DNA of 34,576 nucleotides. Origin: a virus. Its lineage: Duplodnaviria; Heunggongvirae; Uroviricota; Caudoviricetes. Below, piece after piece: positions 745 to 29,954 of this stretch; positions within the stretch are counted from its first letter, which is position 1; each line of letters starts with the position of its first letter. Made by a program: the position numbers and the translations under genes. The notes under the pieces were generated by a model. That model saw nothing but the letters and a program-made list of their open reading frames with translations, ran no database searches and was not told the origin of the DNA. The stretch lies in the IMG/VR virus record IMGVR_UViG_647533110_000001; one strand, written 5' to 3'.

Positions 745-774
745 AAGAATAGCCCTTGAACAAAGTATTTGTTG
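745..774 (-). promoter_or_regulatory. Putative phage late promoter (near-consensus copy)
   Basis: CAACAAAT-N14-CTATTCTT, ending 15 nt before ATG 729; has AACA instead of AACC. Confidence 0.55.
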
Positions 775-791
775 ATGTGGGAATAGATAAA

Positions 792-1145
792 CTATTTCTT
801 TATTTCCTCCAATATTTCCTTGGCCATACGTTTTGCTTCCATTCTCCACATTTGCATGTCATTCCATTCCTTTTGATGTTCACTATCTTCATCTTCTAGG
901 AGGTGATTATTAATAATGGCTTGCATTGCATCATCAGAGTACCGTCCATGAATAATAGCTGAAACCAATTGGCTATATGTGGGCATTCCAACTGGAAGGG
1001 TTATCTCACACCATTTGTATTGTTCATTTTCACCTTCTTTTACTAAATTAACATCAAATGCAATTGTGTATTGACGCAACCCTAATTTTATATTGTGTCG
1101 TATGCGTTGAGGTTGCTCATTACCTTGATTATAAGCTATAAACAT
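792..1145 (-). CDS. Small hypothetical phage protein (possibly fibre-associated)
   Basis: The ORF track gives 792..1205. The more plausible start is ATG 1145 (MFIAYNQG...), which overlaps the RT stop by 10 nt and suggests translational coupling. C-terminus reads AIIHGRYSDDAMQAIINN...EWNDMQMWRMEAK. Confidence 0.6.
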   Translation of the reverse strand: MFIAYNQGNEQPQRIRHNIKLGLRQYTIAFDVNLVKEGENEQYKWCEITLPVGMPTYSQLVSAIIHGRYSDDAMQAIINNHLLEDEDSEHQKEWNDMQMWRMEAKRMAKEILEEIKK

Positions 1146-2557
1146 TGTACTGTGTTTTTTATTTTTACAACTTGAAATTTTCCTTGAATATAGCAAGCTT
1201 TCCAAAAATAATGTAGTTCTGAAAATGCTTTGCGCCTGATCCCGTATGACTGATAATGAATTAAGAAACCTAAATAAGAGTTTATAGATCTCACATTGGC
1301 ATATATAGCTTCCTTGTCACAGTTTTTACATGCTTCTTCTAAATAACTTACAGCATTAATAAAGTTTCCAACAGTTCTATTCGATAAGTAAGCTCTACCC
1401 GGCTTAATTACTCCTCCTACCATTTTTATTCCTTTTTTAACTTCTTGAATATAAATTTTATCAGGGTGCATTTGAATATTTAAGATATACCGTAGTTGAT
1501 TCCTAGAAGCTCTTTTAAAATATATTGCATCTTCCTTAGTTTTACATACAAAGCCAAAATCATCTACAAAACGTACATATTTGGCTCCTCTTTCTTCTGC
1601 TGCTTTAATAGCCCATTCATCAAAAAATGACATGTAAAAATTGGCAAATAATTGACTGGTTAGGTTTCCTATTGGTTCGCCTTTCATCCATTCATTGTAA
1701 AACAGGCTTTTGTTTTTAGGCAGTATTCTCCATAATTTTAAATTTCCTTGACGTATGCAATCATCTTGTGGTCGATGTCGTACAATTATTTCTGTAAGCC
1801 ATAGCACTAAATCTAAATCTTGTTCATATATGGTCCCTTTCCAATAATTCCATTTTTCTTTGATAAATGGTAATAAGTGTTCTAATAATCGTTCGCAATC
1901 AATTGACATAAAAAATCCTTTAATATCAAATTGAGCATACCAAGCCTCGTGCGAATAATTATCAGAGACTTCAATTGTATTTTTTGTCAACTTATCAATA
2001 CATGCAAATGTTCCAAAACCCTTTCGACAGTTAAATGATACATTTCCGTGTTCAACAAAACGTGCCTCAAACAGTGGCTCTAAGCGTAGACACAACCAAT
2101 GTTGTACAATACGGTCACGGAAATTTGCAGCAAACACTTCCCGTAATTTAGGACGGGTAACTATAAAACAAGTACTTGTTGTTGGTCTATATGTTCGTTC
2201 ATAAACTTCTCTCGCTAAATCTAATAGATCTTCATGCCAAATAAGTCTATACATAACACATTGTGAACTTGTCTTTTTTTGGGCACAGCAATCATCTAAC
2301 GCATCAAACCATCCCTCGACATATTTATCGTTAAGTGCTGCAACCGCTCTCACCATGTTACTGTTGTACTTGTTGTTGTTGTTGAAGTTGCCATTACTAA
2401 AGTTCACGTTCCAGCTGTTGTTCTGACTGTTCTCACTGCTACTCCAGTGCCGGCTTGCGGTTATTGCGTGTACTATCTTGTTCTTAACTAGGTCTTTAAC
2501 GCTTGGTAAAGGCCCAGTGACACGCCCATTTTTCAATAAAGATGTCCCTGTTATCAT
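1136..2557 (-). CDS. DGR reverse transcriptase (start either ATG 2557, including the TR-encoded peptide, or ATG 2356)
   Basis: RT motifs KLREVFAANFRDRIVQH, FDIKGFFMSID, GEPIGNLTSQLFANFY (DGR-type GxxxSQ) and YVRFVDDF. No group II intron maturase/endonuclease extension. Adjacent to avd, TR and VR. Confidence 0.95.
   Translation of the reverse strand: MITGTSLLKNGRVTGPLPSVKDLVKNKIVHAITASRHWSSSENSQNNSWNVNFSNGNFNNNNKYNSNMVRAVAALNDKYVEGWFDALDDCCAQKKTSSQCVMYRLIWHEDLLDLAREVYERTYRPTTSTCFIVTRPKLREVFAANFRDRIVQHWLCLRLEPLFEARFVEHGNVSFNCRKGFGTFACIDKLTKNTIEVSDNYSHEAWYAQFDIKGFFMSIDCERLLEHLLPFIKEKWNYWKGTIYEQDLDLVLWLTEIIVRHRPQDDCIRQGNLKLWRILPKNKSLFYNEWMKGEPIGNLTSQLFANFYMSFFDEWAIKAAEERGAKYVRFVDDFGFVCKTKEDAIYFKRASRNQLRYILNIQMHPDKIYIQEVKKGIKMVGGVIKPGRAYLSNRTVGNFINAVSYLEEACKNCDKEAIYANVRSINSYLGFLIHYQSYGIRRKAFSELHYFWKACYIQGKFQVVKIKNTVQCL
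2336..2451 (-). repeat. DGR template repeat (TR)
   Basis: 116-bp near-copy of 3107-3222 with 10 mismatches, 9 of them at TR adenines on the coding strand. Contains 13 in-frame AAY codons. Confidence 0.95.
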
Positions 2558-2569
2558 AGTCGTAACCGT

Positions 2570-2971
2570 TCAACAGGTCTGCTGCTCCAACACTTTGCTT
2601 CTCCAGCTTTTAATATGCTTTGAAATTTCCTTTAAAGATTCAGCAAAATGTGGCATTTGCTTGTTGCTAATTATGCGTGTATGAGGACTCCGATTTGACC
2701 ACTCTTTTAAGGTGTCAATGCAAGTTTTCACTGTACGCATTTGCAAATAAAATGAATTAATAAGTTCAAGTTTGGAATCAGGGTCTTCTTCATTTAAAGC
2801 CAATCCTATCACTGTTAATCCATCAAGCAGAGTGTCTATGAGACGTTTGCTTAATTGACGAATTCCTACACTATTAGGAGTTCGTTCTACCATTTCTATA
2901 CAGAGTAACATTAAATTTTCTGTTTCTCTGTAAATAGGTGCACTTCCTGCATTACGAATTGTTCTTGCCAT
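2570..2971 (-). CDS. avd: DGR accessory variability determinant (Avd-like four-helix bundle protein)
   Basis: 133-aa helical, basic protein between the target gene and TR/RT, the canonical avd position. The pattern IYRETENLML...L..RL...LLD...IGLA...L..L resembles the bAvd/23S rRNA-IVP-like family. Confidence 0.8.
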   Translation of the reverse strand: MARTIRNAGSAPIYRETENLMLLCIEMVERTPNSVGIRQLSKRLIDTLLDGLTVIGLALNEEDPDSKLELINSFYLQMRTVKTCIDTLKEWSNRSPHTRIISNKQMPHFAESLKEISKHIKSWRSKVLEQQTC

Positions 2972-3019
2972 AATTAAAAGATTTTATTCACAATGTGTCT
3001 TATTACATATAGTTTATTT

Positions 3020-3049: not shown

Positions 3050-3072
3050 ACAATTATGGCATATTTATTTTT

Positions 3073-3096: not shown

Positions 3097-3100
3097 TATA

Positions 3101-6100
3101 CTAAAATGCTGCAACCGCTCTCACCATGTTACTGTTGAACTTGTTGCTGTAGTAGAAGTTGCCATAACTAATGTTCACGACCCAGCTGTAGTTCTGACTG
3201 CTCTCACTGCTACTCCAGTGCCAAGAATTAGAAAAATCATTCAAAATACCGGCATCTATTGCTTTTTGAAAAATTGCACCTATTTTATCATCATCATAAT
3301 TCACTCCTTGCCTAGCGTGCCAATACATACGCATAAGTTCACCAACAGATGGTAGGTACCAATTATGATATTTAAATTTATCTGCTAATTCTTCGCCTGC
3401 TTTCACTGTAGGCTGATAAGCATAGCATTTGCTGACAGCAGGATAATAAAATTGTTGATATTTACTAAGATTCTCATTGTTAGCAATTATGTTATTTATA
3501 TACTGGGTCAACATTGCTTGTTCAGTATATAAGTCAGTCGCTTCAGGTATCGGCAAATTAACTCCTGAATCTTCTAAGATTTTATTTCTATGTTGAATAA
3601 TTTTTAAAGTTTTTGCTAAACCGACAGGAACTTCGTCACCTCTTTTATAGGCACCTGATAAAATAGCTAAATCCGCAGCCAATTCCTCTTTTCCTGTATT
3701 AATTGTACCTGGAGCAGCGATACCATCTCCAACAGCAACTGTTTTAACATCTGAATTTACAAATCCGTCAATTGTATTTTCATCTACATAATTATCATAC
3801 CTTATGTAGTTAGGAGAGGTATTACCTTGGTCGTCATATTCTGTAGGTTGTAAGCCAGTCTGTGTAATGTTAGCAATTGAACCTATATCATATACACTAT
3901 AATTAACATCATCTTGTAATTCAATAGGATAAATTGCATATTGTTCATTCCACTCTTCCGTTTGTCCTGTATTTTGAGGATAAAGCCCCCATACTATACC
4001 TGAATTTTCAAGATTTGATAATGCTACCATACGTCTATCATTGGCATCTGCTGGATTTATGTAAAAACAAATTCCAACTACGGTTTTTCCAGCAGTTGTA
4101 GGACCATAAGTTCCATCATAAAATACATAATCTCCGAGATGAGCACGTCTGGGGTATAAACCAATATCCCATGATGCTTCAAGCACTTCACCATTTGTTT
4201 TTGTTAGATAACATCTTAAAGTTGTATGTGGAGCCAATGTATCTTCATCTCCTAATTGAGATACATTGATAACGCAATAATCTTTTGACGTATTGACTAT
4301 TTTTGCATACAAATTGGTATCCAATGACCAACGAATGCTAACCACATCATTCCCATTAGCGGTATTCGGCTTACAGTAAAAAGTGTGTTCACCTGTAGAA
4401 TAAATGTATTGGCTTCCTTTGATTTCTATAGCTGCAATAGGAGTTGAGTAGTAAGTAATATGAAGATTGTTGTTCTCATCATCTACATTTCCCCAATGAT
4501 ACAACCAATCAATTTTATTGTTAAAATTAGGTCGGTTGGTAGTATTGTTTATTACTGCTATTTTTCCAGATACACTACTGTCTGTAATAGAAGCCAAATA
4601 GTTAATCATATAAAGAGAAACCTCGGTCCAGTTTATACTTGCTAACTTTAAATAATTCAGCGGTGCATTGCCTGTAAAGCATAAATTAAATATGGTACGC
4701 GAATCTGCAATCCCTGCGCCAATTGATAAACTTTGCATTCGGTCAGCTCCTTCCAATGTGATGGTTTTCAAATTAGGCTGTTGATCTAAAGACAAAGATG
4801 TTAAAGTCCCAGGAAGATGAACCTCTTCTAAATATTCGGTAGCTGGAAGAACAACAGAAGACAACATTGTTCCTACTAAATTCAACATTCTAAGTTTAAG
4901 CAAAATAGATAAATCTAAACCACCTACTAAACTAGCGACACGTTTTAATACTAGTTCTTGCAACAAAGGGGCAGTAATAGTCATACCGGTAGGACGGAAT
5001 TCAACAACATCTTTTCCATCCACATGAAAGGCTGTTAGGCGAGCACCGCTTAAATTAAATGTTTCTCCTAAACTTTTGTCTGTAAAGTCACCAATGGAAC
5101 GCATATAATCAATACCATTTAAGAAAATATTAGTATTGCCATCTGAAGTTCCAACATTGACATCGTATGTTTCTCCGGCTTTAATACGTGGAGACAGTGC
5201 GTTACCAACCCCATAAGATAGTGTCGAACCTATGGCAAATGAGGGGTACATCCAAATATGTGGTACAATAGAAAATTTAAATTGTGGACGTGTACCATCT
5301 GTTTTTATTATAGACCGGAAGTTTAATGAGCCTGCTGATCCTTCACCGTCACGCCTTCCAAAGTCTCCAAAGGCTGCATAAGAAGATATGTAGGTAAGTC
5401 TGCGTGCAACCCATTGCATTTCTGCTTGTAATCCATCTCCTAAACTTTGTGTTATGGGATCTGTACCATTTGTGTATTTATTTTCCGGGTCTGAACTCAC
5501 ATAGGCGGTTCTGGCACGTTCATATACAAGACGAGCCACTTCATTGTAAGCAACGGCTGGGAAATAACGTTGTACGTAAAAATAATATTTTTCCATACAG
5601 CCCATTAAAGTTCTATCATCACTTAATTTAAGCATTGCTTGTAATATAGAGCGCATATTGGTACGCAATTCATCTGGAAAAGCGTTTTCCATTTGGTTAA
5701 ATAGTGCATTCCCTTCGCTATTCCAATAAAAGCCTCCATCATTATTTTTATCATGTTCTTCTACATAGTAAGGTTTTTCTCTTTGCCCTACATTATTTAC
5801 AGGAAATATTGTGTCCAAATCATCTTGATGCCAACCAATTAAATGAGTTTTTGGGTCAACATAAAAATATATATTCTTTCCTCTGTTATCACTGGCTGCA
5901 ATTAACTTACAAAAATTCATAGCAAAATGAGTTTCTGTAAGATTAAAATATTTTCCTGCATCAGCCTTGAACAATGCTATTCTAGCCGTTTTGAACGATG
6001 AGTTAATTGCATCCCAATCTGTACCGCTGGCAATATTCCCGCATTGTTCGTTGATATTTACAGTCGAATATCTTCCACTTTCAATCTTTTCAGTGCCTGC

Positions 6101-16074: not shown

Positions 16075-17115
16075 TTAAATGGTGTTAGAAGTTAATGATT
16101 CAATCATTTGAGCGGCTTGATTAGCAGCAGATGCTTTAACCTTATCAAGAAGAACTTTGGCCCAACCTTGTTTTTTCATTTGAGAGATTTCAAGGTTTGT
16201 TCCATTTATGGTATCTTGCACTACATTAACCGCGTCATCCGGTTCAACGGCAACACATGTAAAACTATATGGTTGAACATTCTTAAAGCCTTCATTTTGC
16301 CCCATATTGAAGTCTTTTATCAGAATTTGTGTCACATTGAACTGTTGAAACATGAGATTAAATACCTGGATAACTCCTTTATGTTGCATCAATGTTATAA
16401 ATTTGGAAACTTCTGCATACGGATATACATCCGGATAATTGCTAACAATCTTTCCTGTTACAGTAAAATTTATATCGCCTCCTGAAATCAATTCTTTACG
16501 TGAATAATCTCTTCCTTGTACCTTGGTTAATACAAGATTGTTAGAACTTTGTGCTTGCACTATAGCACCTAAGTCTAAGAAAACAGGATCGCCTGGCACC
16601 TTTACTTCCGTAGCAGTGTTAAGTGATGAACTGGCAGCAGCTTCATTACTTAATCCTTTTATTTTATCCCAATAAGTATTGAATTGAACCGTTTGAACCT
16701 GGCCGCTTTCATTTTTAATCCAAAGAAGTAAACCTTCATTGGCAGGTTTGCCCTGATACTTTAATACAACCCCTTGTTTATTAAAGGTATCTTCATCTGC
16801 CTTCTGACCGTTCGTTATGATTTTCTGAAGCTCTTGACCTTGGTTCTTCTGATAGGCTGCGGTGGCATTCTTTCTGTCCAACTGGCGTATATATTTGGGA
16901 TAAAGATCGTTGATGGTAGCAAAAGTCATTTGCATCATCGTTCTTTTGGCTGCATAAACAAATACATTACTATATCCTCTATTGGATATAAATTTCAATT
17001 GTCCATCTCTTTTTCTATAATTAGCTGCATAAAAGGCGGCATTCACACCGGTGTTTGCCAGCCCTTTACCAACATTAATCGTTAAATTAGAAAATGTAGA
17101 GCTTATAAAACTCAT
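16075..17115 (-). CDS. Probable tail tube initiator/baseplate protein (DUF6046-like)
   Basis: Immediately after the tape measure. The motif SNNLVLTKVQGRDYSRKELISGGDINFTVTG resembles Bacteroidota phage DUF6046-like proteins. Confidence 0.5.
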   Translation of the reverse strand: MSFISSTFSNLTINVGKGLANTGVNAAFYAANYRKRDGQLKFISNRGYSNVFVYAAKRTMMQMTFATINDLYPKYIRQLDRKNATAAYQKNQGQELQKIITNGQKADEDTFNKQGVVLKYQGKPANEGLLLWIKNESGQVQTVQFNTYWDKIKGLSNEAAASSSLNTATEVKVPGDPVFLDLGAIVQAQSSNNLVLTKVQGRDYSRKELISGGDINFTVTGKIVSNYPDVYPYAEVSKFITLMQHKGVIQVFNLMFQQFNVTQILIKDFNMGQNEGFKNVQPYSFTCVAVEPDDAVNVVQDTINGTNLEISQMKKQGWAKVLLDKVKASAANQAAQMIESLTSNTI

Positions 17116-17116: not shown

Positions 17117-20100
17117 TTACATCATATTTGCATTAAAATCTTGAACTACATCTAACAAGGCGGTTGCTAATTCTTGTTTTACGTTTGCTATTGCCGCAAC
17201 TTGTCTATCATCTGTCATATCAATTGTTTGATGCTCCACGTGCATTAGATTTTCTATTCGTACTATTAATTGCTTAGGAGCTGCATTATAATTATTATGA
17301 CTCCTATATTGAGACTGGTCGGCTCCGTTATGAAGGCTGGAAGCTAAATCTTGCTCTTTGTTACCAGTCGTAGGGTCCCACTTAAATGTATCTTTAGCAT
17401 TTTTAGGGGTATATATTTTCCCACTTTTATCTACCCACTGTGGAGTAGCGTATGGAGCTATTGTTTTAGCTATATATTGTGCCCCGTCAAAAATCGCTTT
17501 ATCACCTTCTTTCTGTGGACCATAAAAACCGCCCGTAGGAAGAACATCTCCTTCAGAAAGAAGATTTTGAATCGGTATTCTATTTATGAACGGAGCGAAC
17601 AAAGATTTATGTCCGGAATACAAATCGTTATACCAAGAAACTAACTTATCAAAGGTTTCAGTAATATAATCTATTGCTTCTTGTTGACTTTCTAGTTTAT
17701 ATTTCCCCGGATTGTTAACAATATCTTGTACATGCTTTGACCATCCTTCTGTTCCAAATAGCCCTTTAGTTGGATCAAACAACGGCCCAAATAACCCTTG
17801 TAATACTTTCTGGGTTCTTGTTGGATCTATTGTTTCTCCAGACTCAAAATCTTTAAGAATTGAAGCGTAATCATCCCATGCACTTATTGTTCCTTTCATA
17901 ATTTGAGCTAGATGACGTATATATGCTTGTGAGCGATGTACATCACCTTCGGTCATCTTATCATGGAATGTTTCTGTGCTAATCCAGTCCCATCGAGAAT
18001 CCCAACTACCCATCTTAGGTATAAATCTATCTGCTGCATTCTTTAGTATATTCGATAGATCTTCCGAACTACGAGCAGAAGTGGCATTGTGCAAAAGATA
18101 TTTGCTCAAAGCCATATTCTCTTTAGAATTATGGTCTGCTAATTGGGCCAGCATCATTTGGACGGCCACTTGTTCGCTTATATCTCCGTTTTTTGCAAAA
18201 ATATTAGTATTGGTTCCACTTAAAGTACGGCCATGTAACTCATACGCATAATAATTTTCACCGTTCAGACCTTTTTTGACAGTCTGTTTCATTCCCAGTG
18301 CGCCGGATAATGACTGGAAGGCTTTATCTACACCTGTCCATTGGTCTGCGGCTTCTAATCGTTTTAGTAATTCCGGGTCTCTACCTGCGGCTGTGTCAAA
18401 GAATTTGGTTTGGTCGTCTACACTTTGTTTGGGACCATTCTTTTCTATCCAGTAACGATGCCATAATTCAGCGGATTGAGCAATACGCTCGTTTTGGGTT
18501 AACAATTCATTATTGAAAATACGCATATTTCCAATCATTAAGGCATCTGGATCGGATAGATTCAACTTGTCAACATTCAAATTACGATAGCTTTGTGCCC
18601 ATGCTTCATTAGCTTGGCGAGCAGCTTCTGTTATTTTATATGCATCATAAATTTTATAACCTATATAAGTGATAGCTCCTGCTGCCATTACCCCCCAACC
18701 AATTGGATTAGTTAAGAAAAAACGTGAAAACCCTTTTATTGCTCCCCATAATGTTGTATTGCCTATTTCCGTGAGGGTATTTATAGTCTTATTACTACTA
18801 TTTGCTACAACATTACCGACTGTACTTCCTCCAACAAACCATTGTTTAATTTTACTTCCACCATGTAGTAAACCTCCACCTAACGCATTGAATATAGCCT
18901 GTCCTTTATTTAAATTATGGCGGCTTTTTTCTATATTATATATACGTACCATATAGGTAAGTGCGGTAAATAGCGGTTTTAAAAAGAATTTAGACAACCA
19001 ATCTCCCATAAACAATCCACGAATCATTAATGTCGTACTCCATATACTTTGAACTACGCCTGCTGCAATTCCTAACGACATTTGGATTCTTATAAAATAT
19101 TGAAGAACGGTCTTCCCCCAATTTGGTATCCAGTTCCAGACAGTCATAATGCCTTTAAACACACCAACAATAACATTTGCTATTTTCAAAAACATGTCCA
19201 TTGCATTTCTCAATGCAGTTGCAAACTCTGTGGATTTCATTAACTCAATCATGCGTTGCAGGAAGTCTCGTATTACTCCTTGCATTTGTTCAAACCCTTG
19301 CATTCCAGTTTCTGTAAATGCCGAGGTCATCTGATACCAAAGACCCTGTATGGTGTTTTTCTTTTCGTCGGCAAGGTCGGATGCAAGCCCCATTGACTTT
19401 TTATTGAGTCCGGTTACTTCTTGCATTTTTGCTACATTATTTATTAATGCTAGTGCACCTGGAGCCGCTGTTACCCGAAACATCTTGTTGATTAGTGTTG
19501 AGAAATCACCAGCACTCATGGTTTGCTGTTTTTCATGTAAATCACTTAAAATGTCAGAGAGATTCCGAAGATTTCCGTTTTTATCTTTTGTGTTGATGCC
19601 TAATATGTCCCATGCTTCTTGACCTCTTTTAGTAGGGTTCATCATATTTAATAGCATCATACGTAACGTAGTACCTGCGTGAGAACCTTTGATACCGGCA
19701 TCGCCTAATACACCAAAAGCTGCCGAAGCAGTTTCAAAATTTAACCCTGATTGATGGGCGACAGTACCGGCATATTTAAATGATTCAGCTAATTCTAACA
19801 ATGTTGTATTCGTTTTTGTGAACGTCATCGTAAGAATGTCTGCTGTGTTATCCATCTGTTTTGCTGGGATTTCATAAGCGGTCATAATGTTGGTTACAAC
19901 ATCCGCTGTTTCTCCCAAGTCTGTATCACCTACTAGTGCAATATCTGATATAGGCCGGATAGCATGTTTTATTTGATCGACATCATATCCTGCCATAGCT
20001 AAGAACTTTCCAGCTGATGCAACTTGTGGGGCTGTATATTTAGTCTCAACACCGACTTGGCGCATGAGCTGGTTCATTTCATTAAACCGACCTTCAAACC

Positions 20101-20876: not shown

Positions 20877-20906
20877 AAGAATAGCGGTTTGGTACCCTGA
20901 AAGATT
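20877..20906 (-). promoter_or_regulatory. Putative late promoter for the tape measure (weak -35)
   Basis: CTATTCTT 22 nt upstream of the TMP ATG and directly after a terminator. The upstream element is only CAATC, one base off the usual spacing. Confidence 0.45.
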
Positions 20907-20907: not shown

Positions 20908-20941
20908 AAAAAGCCCCTTATCCGACAGAGGATAAAGGGCT
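20908..20941 (-). terminator. Intrinsic terminator after the chaperone frameshift ORF
   Basis: AGCCCTTTATCC-TCTGTC-GGATAAGGGGCT (12 bp with one G.U pair) followed by TTTT on the minus strand. Confidence 0.75.
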
Positions 20942-20969: not shown

Positions 20970-21161
20970 TTACGCAAGCATTCCAAGTGCACTTGCTTGT
21001 TGAGTTATGAGCATTTTGCTGTGGAGCCATACGGCATCTTCAGAAAGCATTGCAAATTCTTCATCGTTTAACTCATCAAGGTTTACGCTGGGAAAATAAT
21101 GACGGATAAATATCAGTCTATGACGAATAAGTTGATCGTCTTTTACTTCCCAGCTTTTGAT
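20970..21161 (-). CDS. -1 frame extension of the tail assembly chaperone (gpT-like, 63 aa; fusion 186 aa)
   Basis: Open -1 frame IKSWEVKDDQLIRHRLIFIRHYFPSVNLDELNDEEFAMLSEDAVWLHSKMLITQQASALGMLA, with no ATG near its 5' end (first Met at residue 38). Entered via in-frame heptamer A-AAT-TTA at 21167-21161. Confidence 0.75.
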   Translation of the reverse strand: MKSWEVKDDQLIRHRLIFIRHYFPSVNLDELNDEEFAMLSEDAVWLHSKMLITQQASALGMLA

Positions 21162-21556: not shown

Positions 21557-21586
21557 AAGAATAGAAGTTCTGGAAATCGTTGGTTT
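21557..21586 (-). promoter_or_regulatory. Putative late promoter (chaperone)
   Basis: AAACCAAC-N14-CTATTCTT, 27 nt upstream of ATG 21529. Confidence 0.7.
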
Positions 21587-21770
21587 ATTGGTCTTGCATT
21601 TAAAATGTTAAATATTGAATGATTGTATATTTTTATTGGTTAGACTTTTATTTTTCATTTTATGTTATTATTTTTGCATGAAAATAGTAGTACATGAGAT
21701 TAATTTCGAGTGTACTCTATGTAGGGATGTAAAAGGGAAACTGTTGAAAAATGGTTTTCCCTTTTTATAT

Positions 21771-21798
21771 AAGAAAAGGCGAGTTTTTACTCGCCTTT
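21771..21798 (-). terminator. Intrinsic terminator after the tail tube gene
   Basis: AAAGGCGAGT-AAAA-ACTCGCCTTT perfect 10-bp stem followed by TCTT, 20 nt after the tube stop; possibly bidirectional. Confidence 0.75.
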
Positions 21799-21818
21799 AT
21801 TGCATGATATATCAGAAG

Positions 21819-23613: not shown

Positions 23614-23967
23614 TTATTGTTTGTAATACGGATTTTGATAAAGAATAGCATCCTTCACCCAATTAGGTTGTGCATCTGCGGTGAATACACCACCTTTGGA
23701 ATCAATATACAATGCCGGATAGCCAGGATATTTTTGTAACAGTTCTTTTACGAATTCTGGTATTTCATCTTTTTCTTTTGTTTTGTCTTTTTTTTCAGGT
23801 TTTTGAGAAGATTCTTTGATAGAGGAGGTATCTGGAGTTTCAACAGTGTCTTGCTCTTGTTTTTCAGATTCTTCATTTGAAATAACCGGTGCTTTTGAAG
23901 TAACTGTAGGATCTTGTGCTTGAGTGTCTTCTGTGACCGGAGTTTCTGTATTCTTTTTTCTAGCCAT
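23614..23967 (-). CDS. Hypothetical protein (117 aa), low-complexity acidic N-terminus
   Basis: ORF track; between capsid and sheath; function unknown. Confidence 0.65.
   Translation of the reverse strand: MARKKNTETPVTEDTQAQDPTVTSKAPVISNEESEKQEQDTVETPDTSSIKESSQKPEKKDKTKEKDEIPEFVKELLQKYPGYPALYIDSKGGVFTADAQPNWVKDAILYQNPYYKQ
23641..23670 (-). promoter_or_regulatory. Putative late promoter (sheath-tube), embedded in the upstream CDS
   Basis: CAACCTAA-N14-CTATTCTT, 38 nt upstream of ATG 23602. Confidence 0.65.
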
Positions 23968-23977
23968 AACTTAAATT

Positions 23978-24011
23978 AAAAAAGGGAATGGAGTACCGAC
24001 TCCACTCCCTT
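23978..24011 (-). terminator. Intrinsic terminator after the major capsid gene
   Basis: GGGAGTGGAGT-CGGT-ACTCCATTCCC followed by TTTTTT. Confidence 0.8.
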
Positions 24012-25117: not shown

Positions 25118-25138
25118 GTTGTTTATGTTATTTTGTTT

Positions 25139-25678
25139 TTAGTCAAGTGTTTTAAATTGGAAATCTGTTCCTACGACAGCTTCAACAGCCTTAGCCATTT
25201 TCTTTTCTGCCTCGGTCATCTGATTTTCTGCATTTTCAATGTTGGCAGGGTCATTTGCAATTTTAGCAGAAATTTTATCACGTTTTGGAATGGAATTCAG
25301 CGTTGCCTGTACCATCTCAAAATCGTTTTGAGCCATTTCCACCCATTTAGTTTTTGCATCAGAATTGATTTTACCTTCAGCAATTGCATTGTCAACGAAC
25401 TGTTCGATAGTTTCTTTACGTTTTGCTTCTTCAGCATCTTTGTAACTTTTCAATTCGTTCTTGACAGTTGTCAATTCGTTTTGAACATTGGTAAGTTGCG
25501 CATCCAATCCTTCTTTCTGAATTTTCAAAGCATTGTATGAAGCCTGAATTTCTGCTGCCTTGTTTTCCGCATTTTTCAATGCGTCAATTCGGGTAATAAC
25601 AGCTGAAACTTCAGAGGTTTTCTCCAAACCAAGCTGGGCGCATACAGAACCAAATGCAAATTCTTGTTCTTTGTCCAT
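25139..25678 (-). CDS. Putative nested scaffold protein from an internal in-frame start (179 aa)
   Basis: ATG 25678 (MDKEQEFAFG...) follows an A-rich leader (AATTCACAAAAAACA) and a promoter-motif copy 39 nt upstream, at the protease/coiled-coil boundary. Confidence 0.6.
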   Translation of the reverse strand: MDKEQEFAFGSVCAQLGLEKTSEVSAVITRIDALKNAENKAAEIQASYNALKIQKEGLDAQLTNVQNELTTVKNELKSYKDAEEAKRKETIEQFVDNAIAEGKINSDAKTKWVEMAQNDFEMVQATLNSIPKRDKISAKIANDPANIENAENQMTEAEKKMAKAVEAVVGTDFQFKTLD

Positions 25679-26410
25679 TGTTTTTTGTGAATTTGAATTT
25701 TCTATTTGATTTTGATTAGGAATAGAACTGGAATCATCAAGTGGTTTAAAATTGCCCAGTTCTGTATTGATAGAAGCCATGATTTTTTGAAGGGCGTTCG
25801 CTTCCACTACTCCTTCAATTTGATCTTTTACTTTATTACAAACCTGTTTAGAGGTTTTTAAAACACATTCTGCTGATAATATACCGGCGTTTACGGCAGA
25901 TTTTGCATCAAAGTAAGTTCCATCACAACCTTCTTTTCCATCCATGATTTCTCGAACCTTAGCTTTCGTCAGACCAAATCTTTTATGATATATGGTTTCA
26001 ATCTGTTTCTGAAAAGCATTTACAATTTGTTCATTGTCTGGGTTGCATGACTTTTCGTCACGTATGAAGGGGTTGTGGATCATTAAAATAGAATAGTCAC
26101 GCATGTAAGAACGAGTTCCTGCCGCCCACAGTACTGAAGCCATTGATGCTGCCAATCCTTCCACAATTGTTTCAACTTCAATGGGACATTGCTGTATAAT
26201 GGAGAATGTTCCCATTCCGTACAGAACGCTTCCACCTTCACTATTAATGCTGATTATAATTTTCGAGGGTTTAACGTAATCTTGTATCCATAAAAATTCA
26301 TCATTAAAATTACGTGTGCTCTCTTCATCAATTTTGCCATAGAAGCGCATATATACCGGTTTTGCTTCTTGCGCTTCTCCAACTACATATTTTAATTCAT
26401 CTACTTTCAT
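25139..26410 (-). CDS. Clp-type prohead maturation protease with C-terminal scaffold domain
   Basis: INSEGGSV, GLAASMASVL (catalytic Ser) and LMIHNP (catalytic His) ClpP-like motifs. C-terminal coiled coil followed by ETIEQFVDNAIAEGKI...KTKWVEMA. Confidence 0.9.
   Translation of the reverse strand: MKVDELKYVVGEAQEAKPVYMRFYGKIDEESTRNFNDEFLWIQDYVKPSKIIISINSEGGSVLYGMGTFSIIQQCPIEVETIVEGLAASMASVLWAAGTRSYMRDYSILMIHNPFIRDEKSCNPDNEQIVNAFQKQIETIYHKRFGLTKAKVREIMDGKEGCDGTYFDAKSAVNAGILSAECVLKTSKQVCNKVKDQIEGVVEANALQKIMASINTELGNFKPLDDSSSIPNQNQIENSNSQKTMDKEQEFAFGSVCAQLGLEKTSEVSAVITRIDALKNAENKAAEIQASYNALKIQKEGLDAQLTNVQNELTTVKNELKSYKDAEEAKRKETIEQFVDNAIAEGKINSDAKTKWVEMAQNDFEMVQATLNSIPKRDKISAKIANDPANIENAENQMTEAEKKMAKAVEAVVGTDFQFKTLD
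25718..25747 (-). promoter_or_regulatory. Putative late promoter inside the protease gene (scaffold-capsid)
   Basis: AAACCACT-N14-CTATTCCT. Confidence 0.65.
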
Positions 26411-26424
26411 TTGAGCTTTTTCAC

Positions 26425-26454
26425 AAGAATAGGTATCAGCTTCTTTAATGGTTG
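26425..26454 (-). promoter_or_regulatory. Putative late promoter (protease)
   Basis: CAACCATT-N14-CTATTCTT, 14 nt upstream of ATG 26410. Confidence 0.7.
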
Positions 26455-26462
26455 TAAGTTTG

Positions 26463-27236
26463 TTATTCGACTTGACCGGTTGGAGGATCAGTTGAAGGCA
26501 TTTCTACAGAAGGTTCATACTTAGCTACATCTTCGATTTTAGGTTCCTTGTGATTACCATGTGCTTCTGAATCATGTTCTGGTGCATCAGAATGGTTCGT
26601 GAATGGTGGCATAACTAAATACCTGTCTACCCATTTGCGATACTGGAAAGAGGATGATGTTCTAAACCATATCTCGTAGTCAATCCAGTATGGCTGTAGC
26701 CCATGATCTAAAGATTCCGGCATATCAAAATAGGTAAGATTGCAACGTTCATTTAATGCTTCTTCGTAATCTTTCGCATCTTGAATTGCATCATTGATCT
26801 GTTGAAAAACGCGAAATCCATGTGTCTCAACAATATCGTCACTATTGTTTAAATCATTAAGCACAAATCTGATACGCATAGTGGCACGCCCTTCTCCAAT
26901 TCTTTGTTGGGCAACTAAATAACGTACATTCACAAACCGAATAAATGCCGCAGGAAAAGGTATAGCATATTCTGTATTACCACGAGTACGAACAATACGT
27001 TCAAACTGTCCGTTATCTATTTTTACAGTTTGGAATAGTTTAGGCGAATTATTATCGTTAGGGTCTGTATGTAAGGACTCTAATACACGTTTTACAGCTA
27101 AATACACATCCTCTAAAGGGTTGTTGTCTACTTCCTCCAAAGTAGTATCGTCATCATCGGGAAGGGGAGAGGTGTCTTTTGCAAACGTGTCTTTTAAACT
27201 GTCCGGTAAATCTGTTTTATATTTATCTACTATCAT
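26463..27236 (-). CDS. Probable neck/tail-completion protein
   Basis: 257 aa with ATGA overlap to the upstream gene. Motif YAIPFPAAFIRF...RATMRIRF resembles tail-terminator-type proteins; assignment is tentative. Confidence 0.45.
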   Translation of the reverse strand: MIVDKYKTDLPDSLKDTFAKDTSPLPDDDDTTLEEVDNNPLEDVYLAVKRVLESLHTDPNDNNSPKLFQTVKIDNGQFERIVRTRGNTEYAIPFPAAFIRFVNVRYLVAQQRIGEGRATMRIRFVLNDLNNSDDIVETHGFRVFQQINDAIQDAKDYEEALNERCNLTYFDMPESLDHGLQPYWIDYEIWFRTSSSFQYRKWVDRYLVMPPFTNHSDAPEHDSEAHGNHKEPKIEDVAKYEPSVEMPSTDPPTGQVE

Positions 27237-27727
27237 TTTGGAAAGCCATCAAAAATACGAATACTGTAAGATGAAATTTTATCAGCTACGGTTGTAGAAT
27301 ATCCTATAAATTGCCTTTGTCTAATATAGGATGCTGGAGAACCTGGTTTGGCAATTTTCCCTCCTTCATTATGTATTGCTGCATAACAAAAGTTTCTTCC
27401 ATATTGCCTATTACTAAATTTGAACATGTCTGGATCTGTGAATAATTTAACACCACGATTCTTATTAGAATGAAAGCGTTCCCATATTATTGAATGTTTT
27501 AATGCTCCTGTTTCTTCCAATATAGGGTGTGGCTTATGATTACGTCTGGATTGCCAAGAAAAAGTTCCGGCTGAATTGAACCGCCGGAGATAAAAAGAGT
27601 CTCTAAATATTTTTTTTGCGGCATTACCTACCAATGTTTCAAAATTGAATACATTAACTTCAAATTTATTAGGCAATCTCAACCATTGTTGAGCTAATTG
27701 TCTTGGAGTTATTACTTTTCCAGCCAT
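27233..27727 (-). CDS. Virion morphogenesis protein (Mu gpG-like)
   Basis: Basic 164 aa with ILEETGALKHSI, YAAIHNEGG and RQRQFIG motifs. Confidence 0.75.
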   Translation of the reverse strand: MAGKVITPRQLAQQWLRLPNKFEVNVFNFETLVGNAAKKIFRDSFYLRRFNSAGTFSWQSRRNHKPHPILEETGALKHSIIWERFHSNKNRGVKLFTDPDMFKFSNRQYGRNFCYAAIHNEGGKIAKPGSPASYIRQRQFIGYSTTVADKISSYSIRIFDGFPK

Positions 27728-28590
27728 TTGTCCTTAATTTTATTAGCAATGGTGCGCAGCCTCTTTTTATGCTTTTTAGGAATAATAAAGTATGAATGTG
27801 CATCACTAAATATTCGCCCACCCTTTGCTACACTTTCTTTAAATACTGGATTAACAAAATCGGGCATCTCAATAATTTGTCCCATCACCTGTGATAATTT
27901 GGATTGGTTGAGAACGTCAGCACTTTCTTCTACTAGAAAACAACGGCATCCATGTTCAATTGGGGGGATTAACCATGCTGGGAAAGATGCTTTGCGGTAG
28001 CTAGTCCCTTCTAATGCAAGGTGCCAAGGGCGCACCCTATTATCTCCCTGTGTCATATATGTTAACACTGTATTATTGCTATACAAAATCCAACCAGCAG
28101 CAATTCCCATCGCATATTCAATATCTTCGTTTTCAATATTCGCGTATATGCTATTGTATCTGTGAAAAATATTTTCAGCTTCTGCCAGATCTACTTCATT
28201 GGTAATATTAAAATTGTCTGGAAGGTTCTCCGACATCTGAAATTCTTCAGCTACTGCAAAATCAACAAGATTATCTAATGCAGCTACTAATATATTACGT
28301 TGCTCTTTTTCTAATTTGGTTAATCCATCATTGTGATTACGAAGTAATTCCAGTGCTTTTTCAAAGTCCATACCAAAACCTTTGATTGCATGATTCAATG
28401 CAAATTCCGCACGTAACGTCATCATTTCTTCTAATAAATCCCAACGATCCTCTATATTGCCATAGTCCTGTAAAAACTTCTGGAAAACAGCGTAGATAGC
28501 AAGGTATTCAGCATTCTCTTCATCTTTGTTCGATTTAGATTCTGCAAGGACGGAAGGAGAAGTGCTATCTTTTATTCTCCTTCCATTAGA
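27712..28590 (-). CDS. MuF/SPP1 gp7-like minor head protein; frame open 55 codons upstream of its first ATG (28425), probably expressed as a portal fusion
   Basis: MuF motif YMTQGDNRVRPWHLALEG...PPIEHGCRCFL. The frame is open up to a TGA at 28599-28597, immediately before a slippery heptamer. Confidence 0.8.
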   Translation of the reverse strand, partial: SNGRRIKDSTSPSVLAESKSNKDEENAEYLAIYAVFQKFLQDYGNIEDRWDLLEEMMTLRAEFALNHAIKGFGMDFEKALELLRNHNDGLTKLEKEQRNILVAALDNLVDFAVAEEFQMSENLPDNFNITNEVDLAEAENIFHRYNSIYANIENEDIEYAMGIAAGWILYSNNTVLTYMTQGDNRVRPWHLALEGTSYRKASFPAWLIPPIEHGCRCFLVEESADVLNQSKLSQVMGQIIEMPDFVNPVFKESVAKGGRIFSDAHSYFIIPKKHKKRLRTIANKIKDKWLEK

Positions 28591-28596
28591 AAATTT
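28552..28596 (-). other. Putative programmed -1 ribosomal frameshift signal
   Basis: In-frame heptamer A-AAT-TTT (28596-28590), 5-nt spacer CTAAT, then perfect stem GGAAGGAGAA / 13-nt loop / TTCTCCTTCC (28584-28552). Confidence 0.7.
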
Positions 28597-29909
28597 TCAA
28601 CGTTGCTTGAATTCTTTCGTTCACCACGCCTATGCCCATATCTTTTGTAATATTCTTCATCGGACATAATGCGTCTATCATTGGAACTTCCATTTATGCT
28701 CCCGCTATTACTTGCCATTTCCGATATAGCGTTAAATTGTTTCCCTACGACAATACCAAATTCTTTTTCGATTTCATCTGCTGATACTTCATACTTATCT
28801 GTAATAAAAGAATATAAGCTAATCTTGTCTTTGTTACTCATTTCTACACGGTTGGCATATTTGAATTCTAATCCCGGCTTGATATATCCCATAGATACTA
28901 ATCTAGGAACGATCTCTTCATTCATTACATTTTCAATGAAACCGCGATACATTTCTATGCGCTCCCGAAAAATGTCTTGGTGAGCATTTGTTGATCCAAC
29001 ATAAGATTGGGTTGCTCCAGCCATAGATTCAGAGCCAACTATTAGATTAGAAACTTCTGTATTGGCAAAATTTATTAAACTAGTATATATGTGTTCGGAA
29101 TTTGACATTGTAAATGTCTTAATGTCAATATCATCGTTCAATCCTGTGACTATTATTTTATTCTGAGCCGCATTTGCAATGTTTTGTGCTAATCGTTGTC
29201 GATCTTGGATGCTTTCTGATTCAGTCTTACCATGTATGATAGGTTGACCATAAGTATGACTAAAATTAACATAATTAGCAAGAGTGAATTTTTTTGCAAG
29301 GATAGTTGGGGTAGTTGCAGAGAATAGCCCCAAGTCACCATTATCAATAAGTATATAATTCTTGGAGTATTGCGATGAAGCAATATCCCATCCAGGATTC
29401 CACTGCCCTTGTCTTTGCACAACTCGTAATTGACTTGCCAATACATTTCTTCGCTCAATAATATTTACTTCAGCTAGCTTTCCTGTTAAAGGATTAATAT
29501 CAGGCATTATTTCTAATAAGGTGTAACCGTACCATTTGGCTTCAACAATACCTTTTATGATTTTAGTGAATTGAGAACCTTGTATCTTTTTGGTTTCTTC
29601 TACATCCTTAATATATTTTCCTCGTTCATTTTGTCTTGCCAACATGTATCGTTCGCCTATAATCTGTGATTCTACAGTTTCTAATACTGCACGTAAATGA
29701 GCATCCTGCTCTACACATGCTTCGTATAAATCTATCAGTGGACCACGATCATCTAAAACAACCCCGCGTGTTACTTGGGATTGAATGGATTTGTATCTAC
29801 AATGACGGTCAATCTCCCTAACATATTCTTGAATAGTTTTTTTGCTAGTTTTAAATATGCTTTCTAAAGGAGTGCCGTGAAATGTTGTTTCTGCACTAAT
29901 TACATTCAT
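28572..29909 (-). CDS. Portal protein (Mu gp29/DUF935-like)
   Basis: 445 aa with DLYE...DAHLRAVL, EAKWYGYTLLEI, F...YGQPII.GK and EISNLIVG-like (EVSNLIVGSESM) motifs; precedes the MuF-like gene. Confidence 0.85.
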   Translation of the reverse strand: MNVISAETTFHGTPLESIFKTSKKTIQEYVREIDRHCRYKSIQSQVTRGVVLDDRGPLIDLYEACVEQDAHLRAVLETVESQIIGERYMLARQNERGKYIKDVEETKKIQGSQFTKIIKGIVEAKWYGYTLLEIMPDINPLTGKLAEVNIIERRNVLASQLRVVQRQGQWNPGWDIASSQYSKNYILIDNGDLGLFSATTPTILAKKFTLANYVNFSHTYGQPIIHGKTESESIQDRQRLAQNIANAAQNKIIVTGLNDDIDIKTFTMSNSEHIYTSLINFANTEVSNLIVGSESMAGATQSYVGSTNAHQDIFRERIEMYRGFIENVMNEEIVPRLVSMGYIKPGLEFKYANRVEMSNKDKISLYSFITDKYEVSADEIEKEFGIVVGKQFNAISEMASNSGSINGSSNDRRIMSDEEYYKRYGHRRGERKNSSNVENFLMEGE

Positions 29910-29924
29910 ATTAAGAGTTTTTGA

Positions 29925-29954
29925 AAGAATAGATAGCGAGTCTAAAGTTGGTTT
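29925..29954 (-). promoter_or_regulatory. Putative late promoter at the head of the virion module
   Basis: AAACCAAC-N14-CTATTCTT, 15 nt upstream of the portal ATG. Confidence 0.7.

Follow-up and report, generated by a model that had tools for sequence, protein, structure and literature searches.

The window, meaning the whole stretch of 34,576 nucleotides analysed here, carries on its minus strand eight sites with a bipartite motif that are probably late promoters, read by the phage's own ECF-type sigma factor on the host core RNA polymerase. An earlier note on this DNA had proposed ECF-sigma-like late promoters, and that proposal is supported by two boxes at a fixed spacing, a spacer free to vary, a common orientation along the virion strand, placement before late-gene starts, and retention across genera; promoter function, the start sites, and this sigma factor as the reader are what we infer from the sequences. 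The proposal, including its prediction of a sigma factor or activator encoded by the phage beyond the window, withstood all the computational tests that could be applied. The core and spacing of the motif as described earlier (AACC-N18-TATTC) hold, but not its extent, since the full element is longer, aAACc-N17/18-CTATTCTT-N3-5-AAAA. Likewise, the motif is undescribed for the present phage group only; the strategy is known from phages phiEco32 and 7-11.

The phage of the window is a common prophage of gut Bacteroidales, a member of an unstudied and very widespread group, and is best explained as a temperate myovirus of roughly 105 kb. Its late genes form one module:

1 to 29909, minus strand, virion and DGR module, from PHROGs and Pfam matches

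By these matches, which show the gene names given earlier to be largely right, the module runs through portal, protease/scaffold, major capsid, sheath, tube, chaperone, tape measure and baseplate genes, and further contains a 2009-aa DGR target, avd, RT and a tail gene. The eight sites are distributed along it as follows:

29911 to 29954, minus strand, putative portal late promoter; exact core, 30.1 bits with the relatives' matrix
26411 to 26454, minus strand, putative head maturation protease late promoter; exact core, 21.1 bits
25704 to 25747, minus strand, putative internal late promoter of the nested scaffold, inside the protease ORF; exact core
23627 to 23670, minus strand, putative tail sheath late promoter; exact core, 27.7 bits
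21543 to 21586, minus strand, putative tail chaperone (DUF6848) late promoter; exact core, 18.1 bits
20863 to 20906, minus strand, putative tape measure late promoter, AATC variant; 23.0 bits
3006 to 3049, minus strand, putative avd variant late promoter, gTATTCgt; exact core, only 4.6-7.4 bits
731 to 774, minus strand, putative large tail gene late promoter, AACA variant; 18.8 bits

The exact core AACC-N18-TATTC occurs seven times in the window, always on the minus strand, against a chance expectation of 0.40 for both strands together (in agreement with the earlier estimate of about 0.2 per strand); none of 100 shuffles reached seven. Six exact copies and two near-copies lie where they had previously been placed, on the minus strand, and the list of exact cores proved to be one short:

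16502 to 16528, minus strand, seventh exact AACC-N18-TATTC core, inside the baseplate gene 16075-17115

This core was rejected as a member of the set, as both matrices give it -5 to -11 bits and the flanking consensus is missing; with these scores and no start codon downstream, it is best read as a chance occurrence.

The matrix used for the window was trained solely on the portal-upstream regions of 37 non-redundant relatives, with sequences at least 97% identical to the window excluded. In all 37 of these regions an unsupervised search found aAACc..CTATTCTT..gAAA, 33-49 nt ahead of the ATG. Scanned with this matrix, the window gives exactly seven matches of at least 12 bits, all on the minus strand and each preceding a late-gene start (portal, protease, nested scaffold, sheath, chaperone, tape measure, and tail gene), and nothing else, while the shuffled-window control gives 0.47 matches. 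The tape measure and tail gene sites, formerly ranked as near-copies, are strong matches (23.0 and 18.8 bits). The avd site, formerly ranked as exact, is the weakest of the set and has G in place of C ahead of TATTC, yet it is kept in relatives.

Across the 37 relatives the most informative feature of the -35 region is AAC (1.7 bits per position), which is present in seven of the eight window sites, the exception being the tape measure site with AAT. The boxes keep a fixed distance (AAC-N18-CTATTC, or N19 in certain lineages). For the -10 box, which reads CTATTCTT, the variants CTACTC, CTACCC and CTAGTC occur, and groups further removed have CTATTA/G. The gap from TATTC to the ATG ranges from 16 to 50 nt over the eight sites, a variation that counts against a translation signal. 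The late motif is unlike the host primary-sigma signal TTTG / TAnnTTTG, and TAnnTTTG in register on the sites' own strand is absent from all eight. Most described ECF promoters have a -10 box of the CGT type; a box of the CGT or GTC type was not found at these sites, CTATTCTT standing in its place, and that the CTATTC box is not CGT-type is a point against the sigma reading.

At the portal site, AACC occupies 29953-29950 and the TATTC of CTATTCTT 29931-29927, followed by an A-run and the ATG at 29909 (gap 17 nt); orthologues with diverged spacers are found in 37 of 37 non-redundant relatives. The protease site (AACC from 26453, TATTC 26431-26427, ATG 26410, gap 16 nt) has orthologues in the nearly complete relatives G5 and G7, from which orthologues of the window sites were recovered. 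The scaffold site (AACC from 25746, gap 41 nt; 14.4 and 30.5 bits with two matrices) precedes an in-frame ATG at 25678 within the protease gene, from which a nested scaffold of 179 aa would be read to a stop shared with the protease at 25139; this arrangement recurs in G7, and the site is kept in distant relatives. The sheath site (AACC from 23669, ATG 23602, gap 40 nt) lies within the 3' end of an upstream 117-aa ORF and has orthologues in G5, G7, L209 and L213. In four RNA runs, positions 21570-21813, which reach into the chaperone site (AACC from 21585, ATG 21529, gap 29 nt), are swapped for about 360 unrelated bases, and the replacement again has AACC exactly 18 nt ahead of TATTC. The tape measure site (AATC from 20906, ATG 20854, gap 24 nt) follows immediately 3' of a terminator at 20941-20912 and has orthologues of 22.1 bits in G5 and 26.7 bits in G7; those of the tail gene site (AACA from 773, gap 17 nt), whose gene begins at 729 and continues past the window edge, score 25.3 and 21.5 bits.

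Retention of the boxes extends well beyond the window strain. In relatives with 66-100% portal identity and hosts of 37-57% GC, AAC, CTAYTCTT and the downstream A-run stay in register as the spacer diverges freely, and the motif is kept, with unrelated spacers, in prophages of Bacteroides, Parabacteroides, Alistipes, Butyricimonas, Dysgonomonas and Tannerella. The most distant group (58% portal identity) keeps the -10-like box and has no clear AAC. Over 21 non-redundant loci (437 kb) there are 79 matrix matches, 69 of them on the portal strand, and all of these 69 lie at or past the portal start. Family-wide, 62% of matches have an ORF start within 70 nt, compared with 10.6% of random positions, and the distances cluster at 14-22 nt. 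The enrichment upstream of starts and the conservation in relatives on which the earlier claim depended are both found, in the 37 portal regions and the 21 loci.

A phage sigma factor or activator had been predicted to lie outside the window, and an ECF-type sigma gene with Sigma70_r2 and Sigma70_r4_2 domains is indeed found about 16 kb past the left window edge, in records that match the window at 99% identity. The link runs through L187, which shares 12 kb with the window at 99.8% identity and a further 12 kb with L190 at 99.2%; in L190 the gene lies at 19396-20040. All five larger relatives have a Sigma70_r2 gene 43-50 kb downstream of the portal gene on the same strand, and an orthologue occupies the same syntenic position in every relative group examined; as the sigma gene and a CTATT-type box occur together in every one of these groups, their co-occurrence does not discriminate. 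Three scanned orthologues (178-234 aa) pass the Pfam cut-offs for Sigma70_r2 and Sigma70_r4_2 and contain no other domain, and the window-strain copy, of 214 aa, belongs to a 99%-identity cluster carrying PF04542 and PF08281. With sigma-2 and sigma-4 only, no region 1.1 or region 3, and a length of about 170-220 aa as the definition of membership, the protein falls among the ECF sigmas. In the same three orthologues, TIGR02937 (cut-off 42.9) scores 51.8, 47.2 and 38.0 bits, so that two of three pass. Among solved structures the sigma best matches M. tuberculosis SigH (5zx2; E 8.6e-9, residues 17-203), M. tuberculosis SigE, B. subtilis SigW and E. coli sigma-E, over nearly its full length. Its sigma-4 helix, NIETVKSRLFLAR, is of the ECF type; in the structure of E. 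coli sigma-E, a helix of this type makes the contact with AAC. No clean covariation was seen between sigma residues and the -10 variants TATTC, TACTC and TACCC.

The operon in which the sigma gene lies contains recombination genes and has a host-type TATCTTTG box at its head, an octamer found at this position in L190, G5 and G7. Where a cognate anti-sigma factor might be expected, a gene of 201-203 aa overlaps the 3' end of the sigma gene in all relatives; its product has a Cys-rich C-terminus and gave no Pfam hit. Autoregulation is common among bacterial ECF sigmas; before this sigma gene or its operon no strong match to the late motif was found, a match of 10-12 bits occurring only inside the downstream gene, and the lack of the gene's own upstream motif is a point against the sigma reading. 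Another is the presence of other phage DNA-binding proteins, such as a conserved 102-aa HTH_38 / sigma-4-like protein (L083:1447-1755; also in G7).

Host-type boxes also precede the plus-strand genes of the window, as had been noted:

30084 to 30091, plus strand, host-type -7 box TATCTTTG, 40 nt ahead of the plus-strand operon start at 30132
33986 to 33993, plus strand, host-type -7 box TACTTTTG, ahead of the integrase gene (ATG 34020)

The integrase gene has a further TAnnTTTG box ahead of it at 33958. On the minus strand, three terminator-like hairpins lie among the late genes:

23982 to 24011, minus strand, terminator-like hairpin of 13 pairs, after the major capsid gene
21775 to 21798, minus strand, terminator-like hairpin of 10 pairs, after the tail tube gene
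20912 to 20941, minus strand, terminator-like hairpin of 12 pairs with a T-run, separating the chaperone region from the putative tape measure promoter

The second lies about 190 nt before the chaperone copy and the third abuts the tape measure copy, in keeping with the earlier statement that both copies follow a terminator.

Together these elements suggest a two-step cascade. The host sigma would transcribe, via the TATCTTTG box, the operon holding the phage sigma; this 214-aa protein, with sigma-2 and sigma-4 as its only domains, would then direct host core RNA polymerase to the portal, protease, scaffold, sheath, chaperone, tape measure and tail units and, via a weaker variant promoter, to the avd-TR-RT cassette. 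Each promoter would consist of a -35-like AAC(C), 18 (sometimes 19) variable bases, a -10-like CTATTCTT and, 3-5 nt beyond it, an A-rich stretch as the probable point of transcription start, giving leaders of about 10-40 nt. The terminators just ahead of some promoters, and the internal scaffold promoter, may set the relative amounts of the virion parts.

Outside the prophage, the pattern AAC-N18-CTATTCTT shows no excess in four host genomes over a reversed-pattern control (8 vs 13, 6 vs 13, 1 vs 3, and 12 vs 10). G015 and G018 show clusters of three matches, confined to 45 kb and 6 kb, close to the portal gene and on the strand of the virion module, and in G016 and G017 matches adjoin the portal gene. 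In nine host genomes, matches to the phage sigma are at most 28% identical or partial, apart from orthologues in other resident prophages.

These results bear on a rival reading of the sites as promoters that the host primary sigma (sigma-ABfr) recognises, aided by a phage activator binding the AAC box or its vicinity in the manner of P2 Ogr or Mu C/Mor, with the ECF-type sigma serving other genes. The -10-like box starts with TATT, as host TAnnTTTG boxes also may, the conserved small HTH_38 / sigma-4-like protein could be such an activator, and the most distant relatives have the -10-like box without a clear AAC. However, the box deviates from TAnnTTTG in its TTTG half, which promoter mutagenesis in B. 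fragilis reportedly found to be needed, and the pattern is not enriched in host genomes. Direct contact by sigma-4 has just this geometry, with AAC at a constant 18 nt from the -10 box. Every relative group examined conserves a complete sigma in which both DNA-reading domains are present, and no further repeated motif emerged as an alternative target for it. We consider an activator-assisted host sigma unlikely.

The RNA data consist of assembled contigs, which carry neither 5' ends nor strand. A contig of isolate run X7 (depth 39.5) has its end at 26402, upstream of which depth is 0-6; this end, about 25 nt below the protease -10 box, is a weak hint of a start. Contigs of isolate runs also end at 21011 and 20994, near the hairpin at 20941-20912, and depth drops past this point. 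Behind the portal site, the best-scoring one, depth is 0-3, and over the stretch from protease to chaperone it is about 40-49; if the sites form one promoter class, this inequality implies widely differing strengths or RNA stability. Such unequal depth downstream of the copies, together with the location of the scaffold and sheath copies within coding sequence, would also fit an element that is no promoter at all, but acts in the RNA or is bound by a different phage protein, be it a repressor, an antiterminator loader or a packaging factor. We regard this as quite improbable, because two short boxes 18-19 nt apart with a free spacer and an A-run have the layout of a promoter, all copies are oriented along the late genes, some directly follow terminators, where re-initiation is needed, and the sole sharp step in RNA depth (X7, 26402) falls just below the protease copy. 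Reading by a host ECF sigma that is activated by stress or induction and merely exploited by the phage is highly improbable, even with about 22 ECF sigmas per Bacteroidetes genome (PMC7826278) and an AAC -35 generic among ECF promoters, given that the core pattern has no excess in host genomes outside the prophage, the motif is constant in prophages of at least six genera with differing ECF repertoires, host sigmas are only weakly similar to the phage sigma, and the phage has a sigma of its own at a conserved position.

The avd site (AACC from 3048, gap 50 nt) deserves separate mention. This variant putative promoter is located between VR (3097-3222) and avd, in a system whose TR (2326-2451) is 89% identical to VR, a position from which it could drive avd-TR-RT, the DGR cassette. 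At 69-82% avd identity, relatives retain AACC-N18/19-gTATTCTT or AACT-N18-TAGTCTT with a changed spacer. It is possible, though we hold it only tentatively, that the DGR is wired into the late-sigma regulon and that the sigma and AAC-N18-CTATTCTT form a self-contained, host-independent switch across many Bacteroidales genera. If so, production of avd, the template-repeat RNA and RT would be restricted to the late lytic stage, at which the phage sigma is present, and tail-fibre diversification would be timed to the burst of genome copies awaiting packaging and not to the prophage state.

Comparison with known systems places the proposed promoters among several precedents. T4-type late promoters (TATAAATA, read with gp55, gp33 and the clamp) likewise are a phage-specific signal confined to late genes, but they have a single AT-only -10 element, whereas the signal here is bipartite with a C-containing -10 box and the sigma has both domains. 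The E. coli sigma-E consensus, GGAACTT-N16-TCAAA, has the same distance from AAC to the -10 box as AAC-N18-CTATT. With the group 4 (ECF) sigmas, such as sigma-E, SigW and SigH, the phage protein shares sigma-2 and sigma-4.2, a recognition helix of the ECF type (TVKSRLFLAR in the phage) and, in its probable promoters, the -35 AAC core; it differs from bacterial ECF systems in that CTATTCTT is not CGT-like, in having no recognisable anti-sigma and no autoregulatory copy, and in being phage-borne and, as proposed here, in control of virion genes. Phage ECF sigmas were explicitly omitted from the ECF classification (PMC7826278). Bacteroidetes primary-sigma promoters have TTTG at -33 and TAnnTTTG at -7 (PMC7366714), and such boxes are found in this same phage before the plus-strand operon, the integrase gene and the sigma operon; the late motif, in contrast, does not fit TAnnTTTG and has AAC in place of TTTG upstream.

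In coliphage phiEco32 the sigma gp36 reads middle and late promoters of the form tAATGTAtA (PMC8948821, PMC12276001), a redirection of host core RNA polymerase to middle and late genes by a phage sigma similar to what the sequences suggest here; unlike those here, however, its promoters are single-element and gp36 has no recognisable region 4, and a helper, gp79, shuts off the host sigma. The closest precedent is Salmonella phage 7-11, whose own sigma SaPh711_gp47, which has a region 4, reads eight late promoters of the bipartite form GTAAtg-16-aCTA (PMC8948821). Both phages have about eight bipartite promoters, putative in the present case, before late or structural genes, with early genes on host-sigma promoters, a small sigma of their own whose region 4 fits recognition of a -35 element, and CTA within the -10 box. 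They differ in the upstream element (AAC here, GTAAtg in 7-11) and in lifestyle, 7-11 being a lytic podovirus of Enterobacteria and the present phage a temperate myovirus of Bacteroidales of about 105 kb, so that a known phage strategy would here be at work in an unstudied and very widespread phage group.

A pattern search of both strands of the 34.6-kb window recovered seven AACC-N18-TATTC cores, all seven on the minus strand, against a chance level of 0.40 in dinucleotide-preserving shuffles, none of which (0/100) attained seven. Six of these are the exact copies listed in the earlier note (portal, protease, internal scaffold, sheath, chaperone, and avd), and its two near-copies are likewise present, as AATC-N18-TATTC at 20906 (tape measure) and AACA-N18-TATTC at 773 (tail gene). 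The list omitted a seventh core at 16528-16502, inside the baseplate gene; with matrix scores of -5 to -11 bits, this copy is probably a chance occurrence. The core stands as it was described, but the full element is longer and includes its flanks: AAC(C), a variable spacer, CTATTCTT, and then an A-run 3-5 nt on, with 16-50 nt between TATTC and the start codon across sites. The gene names are mostly borne out by PHROGs and Pfam (portal, head protease, major capsid, sheath, tube, tape measure, baseplate hub, and the reverse transcriptase of a diversity-generating retroelement, DGR), which also identify a dUTPase, an NAD-dependent ligase, and an integrase among the plus-strand genes. Hairpin terminators sit after the capsid, tube, and chaperone units. 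A scan for E. coli-type promoters showed no enrichment (35 matches versus 37 in shuffles), as expected for Bacteroidota. The late module also contains a host-type TATTTTTG box at 27257-27250 (minus strand), separated by 13 nt from the ATG at 27236 that follows it; this could be a promoter for the host sigma or a chance match.

A search with the portal protein returned 80 related viral contigs at 68-100% identity. Among these relatives the spacer upstream of the portal gene is wholly different, while AAC, CTA(T/C)TCTT, and the A-run hold constant distances to one another and to the ATG. The search in relatives proposed in the earlier note was carried out with a matrix independent of the window, built by a Gibbs sampler from 37 non-redundant portal-upstream regions from which sequences at least 97% identical to the window had been left out; it recovered the bipartite element, aAACc..CTATTCTT..gAAA, in 37/37 regions, 33-49 nt before the ATG. 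Applied to the window, this matrix gives exactly seven matches of at least 12 bits. They are the sites of the portal, protease, scaffold, sheath, chaperone, tape measure, and tail gene, and each lies on the minus strand; the runner-up reaches 9.8 bits, and shuffles yield 0.47 matches. A second matrix, derived solely from the relatives' non-portal sites, selects the identical seven, with avd ranking eighth. The avd site has a low score, and relatives with 69-82% avd identity carry AACC-N18/19-gTATTCTT or AACT-N18-TAGTCTT at this position; the core is thus kept despite an unrelated spacer, indicating that the avd site is a conserved variant.

Across 21 non-redundant relatives (437 kb), a family-wide scan found 79 matches, 69 of them on the portal strand and every one of those 69 at or past the portal start. 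An ORF begins within 70 nt in 62% of cases, versus 10.6% for random positions, and the distances to ORF starts peak at 14-22 nt. The motif is kept in relatives with portal identity of at least 66%, in hosts of 37-57% GC. We consider the sites very probably promoters. In the nearly complete relative G7, extra copies lie outside the virion module at 67054-67518 (+), 102834 (-), and 91516 (-), before small genes without an assigned function and a 260-aa gene, suggesting a regulon somewhat larger than the eight sites of the window.

The earlier note had also predicted a phage-encoded sigma factor or activator outside the window, and an ECF-type sigma gene is indeed present ~16 kb past the left edge in near-identical records. 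A Sigma70_r2 gene is found in 5/5 larger relatives, 43-50 kb downstream of the portal gene and on the same strand. The link to the window strain was built leftward by exact-protein look-ups, from the window to contig L187 (99.8% identical over the first 12 kb of the window) and on to contig L190 (99.2% identical to L187 over a further 12 kb). The IMG/VR contigs G001-G004 stop short of the region left of the window, so that the absence of Sigma70_r2 from them carries no weight, and contigs L103-L107, with 92-94% sigma identity, share no overlap with window positions 1-3000. Leftward from the window the gene order is tail genes, T5orf172, ThyX-like, NrdD, and NrdG, followed by a gap with a host-type TATCTTTG box and then an operon:

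Genes of the operon behind the TATCTTTG box, in order
158-aa gene
454-aa gene
348-aa gene
SMC-like gene
RuvC-like gene
90-aa gene
L190 19396-20040, sigma gene, 214 aa, ~16 kb past the left edge of the window
L190 20006-20564, 201-aa Cys-rich gene overlapping the sigma gene

The TATCTTTG box also heads the sigma operon in G7 and in G5, another nearly complete relative, and an identical octamer precedes the plus-strand operon of the window at 30084. The sigma protein contains only the domains Sigma70_r2 and Sigma70_r4_2, each above the Pfam cut-off; the ECF superfamily model TIGR02937 is passed by two of the three orthologues scanned, and the protein aligns nearly end to end with M. tuberculosis SigH and SigE, B. 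subtilis SigW, and E. coli sigma-E. Its sigma-4 helix in AAC-using groups is NIETVKSRLFLAR; in the structure of E. coli sigma-E, a helix of this ECF type makes the contact with AAC. Related proteins form about 496 clusters, and the few sources that name them say only "RNA polymerase sigma factor." The overlapping gene encodes 201-203 aa and covers ~35 nt of the sigma 3' end in all relatives (also at L087:2021-2632, P0001, in a related contig); its product belongs to no Pfam family, has a Cys-rich C-terminus, and is a candidate sigma partner, either an anti-sigma or a co-factor.

Sigma and box diverge together, broadly. Relatives with 66-68% portal identity carry a sigma orthologue of 40-44% identity and AAC-N18-CTATT(A/G/T). 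In the group with 58% portal identity (L221, L223, and L224; prophages of Muribaculaceae and Prevotella), the orthologue is 33-38% identical and occupies the same position, and the box CTATTA(C/T)-n-A(A/T)AAA precedes the same genes, often directly past a terminator, with little sign of AAC. No lineage without the sigma was found, every group examined having both an orthologue and a CTATT-type box; G027, an incomplete MAG whose contig falls short of the sigma region, gave no match and is uninformative for co-loss. At the residue level, covariation between the sigma and the -10 variants TATTC, TACTC, TACCC, and TATTA shows no clean pattern among too few independent lineages, one exception being contig L158, which has a "TACTC-type" region 2 and a TATTC box. 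The analysis as a whole supports the ECF-sigma-like late promoter interpretation of the earlier note, and the phage ECF-type sigma probably reads the sites.

Recognition could instead fall to a phage activator working with the host sigma, which we regard as unlikely, given a two-domain phage sigma that accompanies the box in every group examined. A conserved 102-aa HTH_38 protein, encoded at L083:1447-1755 in a related contig (~20 kb right of the window end) and at ~90.2 kb in G7, has a weak likeness to sigma region 4 and is a possible phage transcription regulator or activator. Its Sigma70_r4_2 match, at 18.6 bits, is below the cut-off, and we rejected it as the reader of the motif because it has no sigma-2 domain.

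RNA data were available as Logan assembled contigs from two isolate transcriptome runs and two mouse-gut metatranscriptomes, and such contigs cannot show starts, ends, strand, or level. In the isolate runs contig depth is ~40-49 from 26402 to 21011 (protease to chaperone), 0-6 over the portal operon, and 5-9 over the plus-strand genes, suggesting that the portal site, despite having the highest score, is surpassed in output by others; sparse or missing cover of the portal region in runs X7 and X8 proves nothing. One X7 contig ends at 26402, ~25 nt below the protease -10 box, and isolate contigs stop at 21011 and 20994, a short way ahead of the terminator at 20941-20912. These ends are a weak hint in favor of the promoter reading; contigs of runs X1 and X5 cross the whole region unbroken. 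In 4/4 RNA runs, from three studies, ~360 unrelated bases stand in place of window 21570-21813 (tube terminator to chaperone gene); the breakpoint falls inside the chaperone spacer, and the new sequence again sets AACC exactly 18 nt before TATTC. All four runs also lack one base at 25136, within the short interval that separates the protease stop from the start of the capsid gene. We consider it quite improbable that the element is a site of some other kind than a promoter.

That a host ECF sigma reads the sites is very improbable: in four host genomes with related prophages, AAC-N18-CTATTCTT is no commoner than the reversed pattern (8 vs 13, 6 vs 13, 1 vs 3, and 12 vs 10), and there is no sign of a host regulon. 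Two of these genomes each have a group of three matches, confined to 45 kb and 6 kb respectively, close to the portal gene on the virion-module strand; in the other two, single matches adjoin this gene. Among nine host genomes, sigma matches are at most 28% identical or partial, apart from orthologues in other resident prophages.

With the phage sigma as reader, we propose that the host primary sigma would transcribe the operon that includes the phage sigma gene, as well as the plus-strand genes; the phage sigma would then bring the host core polymerase to AAC-N18-CTATTCTT, with transcripts beginning at the A-run. The predicted late units are portal to head completion, protease, nested scaffold, sheath plus tube, chaperone, tape measure-baseplate-2009-aa fibre, avd-TR-RT (the DGR accessory gene, template repeat, and reverse transcriptase), and the distal tail genes. 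Termination after the capsid, tube, and chaperone units and re-initiation at the next promoter could set stoichiometry. The protease gene (25139-26410, minus strand) contains a nested in-frame ATG at 25678 with its own copy of the putative promoter, giving a 179-aa product that shares the protease C-terminus, a layout also found in G7 and resembling the protease-scaffold arrangement of lambda C/Nu3; transcription from the internal promoter would raise scaffold production from this start.

The DGR cassette appears to be under the same late control as the virion genes, and this finding may show when the phage DGR is active. The DGR repeats are:

2326-2451, DGR template repeat, 126 nt
3097-3222, DGR variable repeat, 126 nt, 89% identical to the template repeat

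The template repeat lies within the 5' part of a 473-aa reverse transcriptase reading frame, which some gene callers start later (406 aa). In the avd leader, ACAyTGTGAAc (2975-3000, minus strand) persists amid diverged flanking sequence in relatives with 69-71% avd identity, and in L243 and L245 it stands ~20-45 nt before avd; this stretch could belong to the DGR RNA.

Exact copies of the window reverse transcriptase are present in ~2,000 blocks of the public collection, including isolate assemblies with contigs of 265-407 kb, indicating that the element is an integrated prophage. Carriers of the prophage include the isolates of assemblies GCA_015560925.1 and GCA_003465275.1. The sigma 99%-identity cluster comprises 793 sequences. 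Nearly complete relatives measure 89-105 kb, and integrated relatives occur in at least eight genera, with hosts in Bacteroides, Parabacteroides, Alistipes, Butyricimonas, Dysgonomonas, Tannerella, Prevotella, and Muribaculaceae. The prophage is very common in gut Bacteroidales; a megablast search of named phage records gave no match to 24.6 kb. With a defined sigma-promoter pair, gut transcriptomes can be followed directly for prophage induction, a cascade from host sigma to phage sigma becomes a testable model, and Bacteroides engineering gains a candidate orthogonal expression part.

In our literature search, neither this motif nor a sigma was described for the phage group, and no paper returned dealt with how temperate phages of Bacteroides control their late genes; a paper on abundant DGR-bearing Bacteroides myoviruses makes no mention of a sigma (PMC8008677). 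Quimbyviridae (PMC8008677) is a candidate family for this phage. Phage ECF sigmas are not captured in the ECF classification (PMC7826278). For the hosts, the start-site atlas of B. thetaiotaomicron records no known alternative-ECF motif for that species, and EcfO of B. fragilis has the only ECF recognition motif found in the literature for Bacteroides (PMC7366714). Set beside bacterial ECF promoters, the element agrees in its -35 AAC and its spacing and differs in its -10 box; no autoregulatory copy is present, and no anti-sigma is recognisable. The closest validated case is Salmonella phage 7-11, in which eight bipartite late promoters (GTAAtg-16-aCTA) are read by the phage's own sigma with region 4 (PMC8948821), followed by phiEco32, with single-element promoters read by gp36 (PMC8948821, PMC12276001). 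The finding is a further case of this known strategy, in which late promoters are dedicated to a phage-encoded sigma; the gut Bacteroidales prophages concerned are very widespread, and experimental work has yet to touch them.
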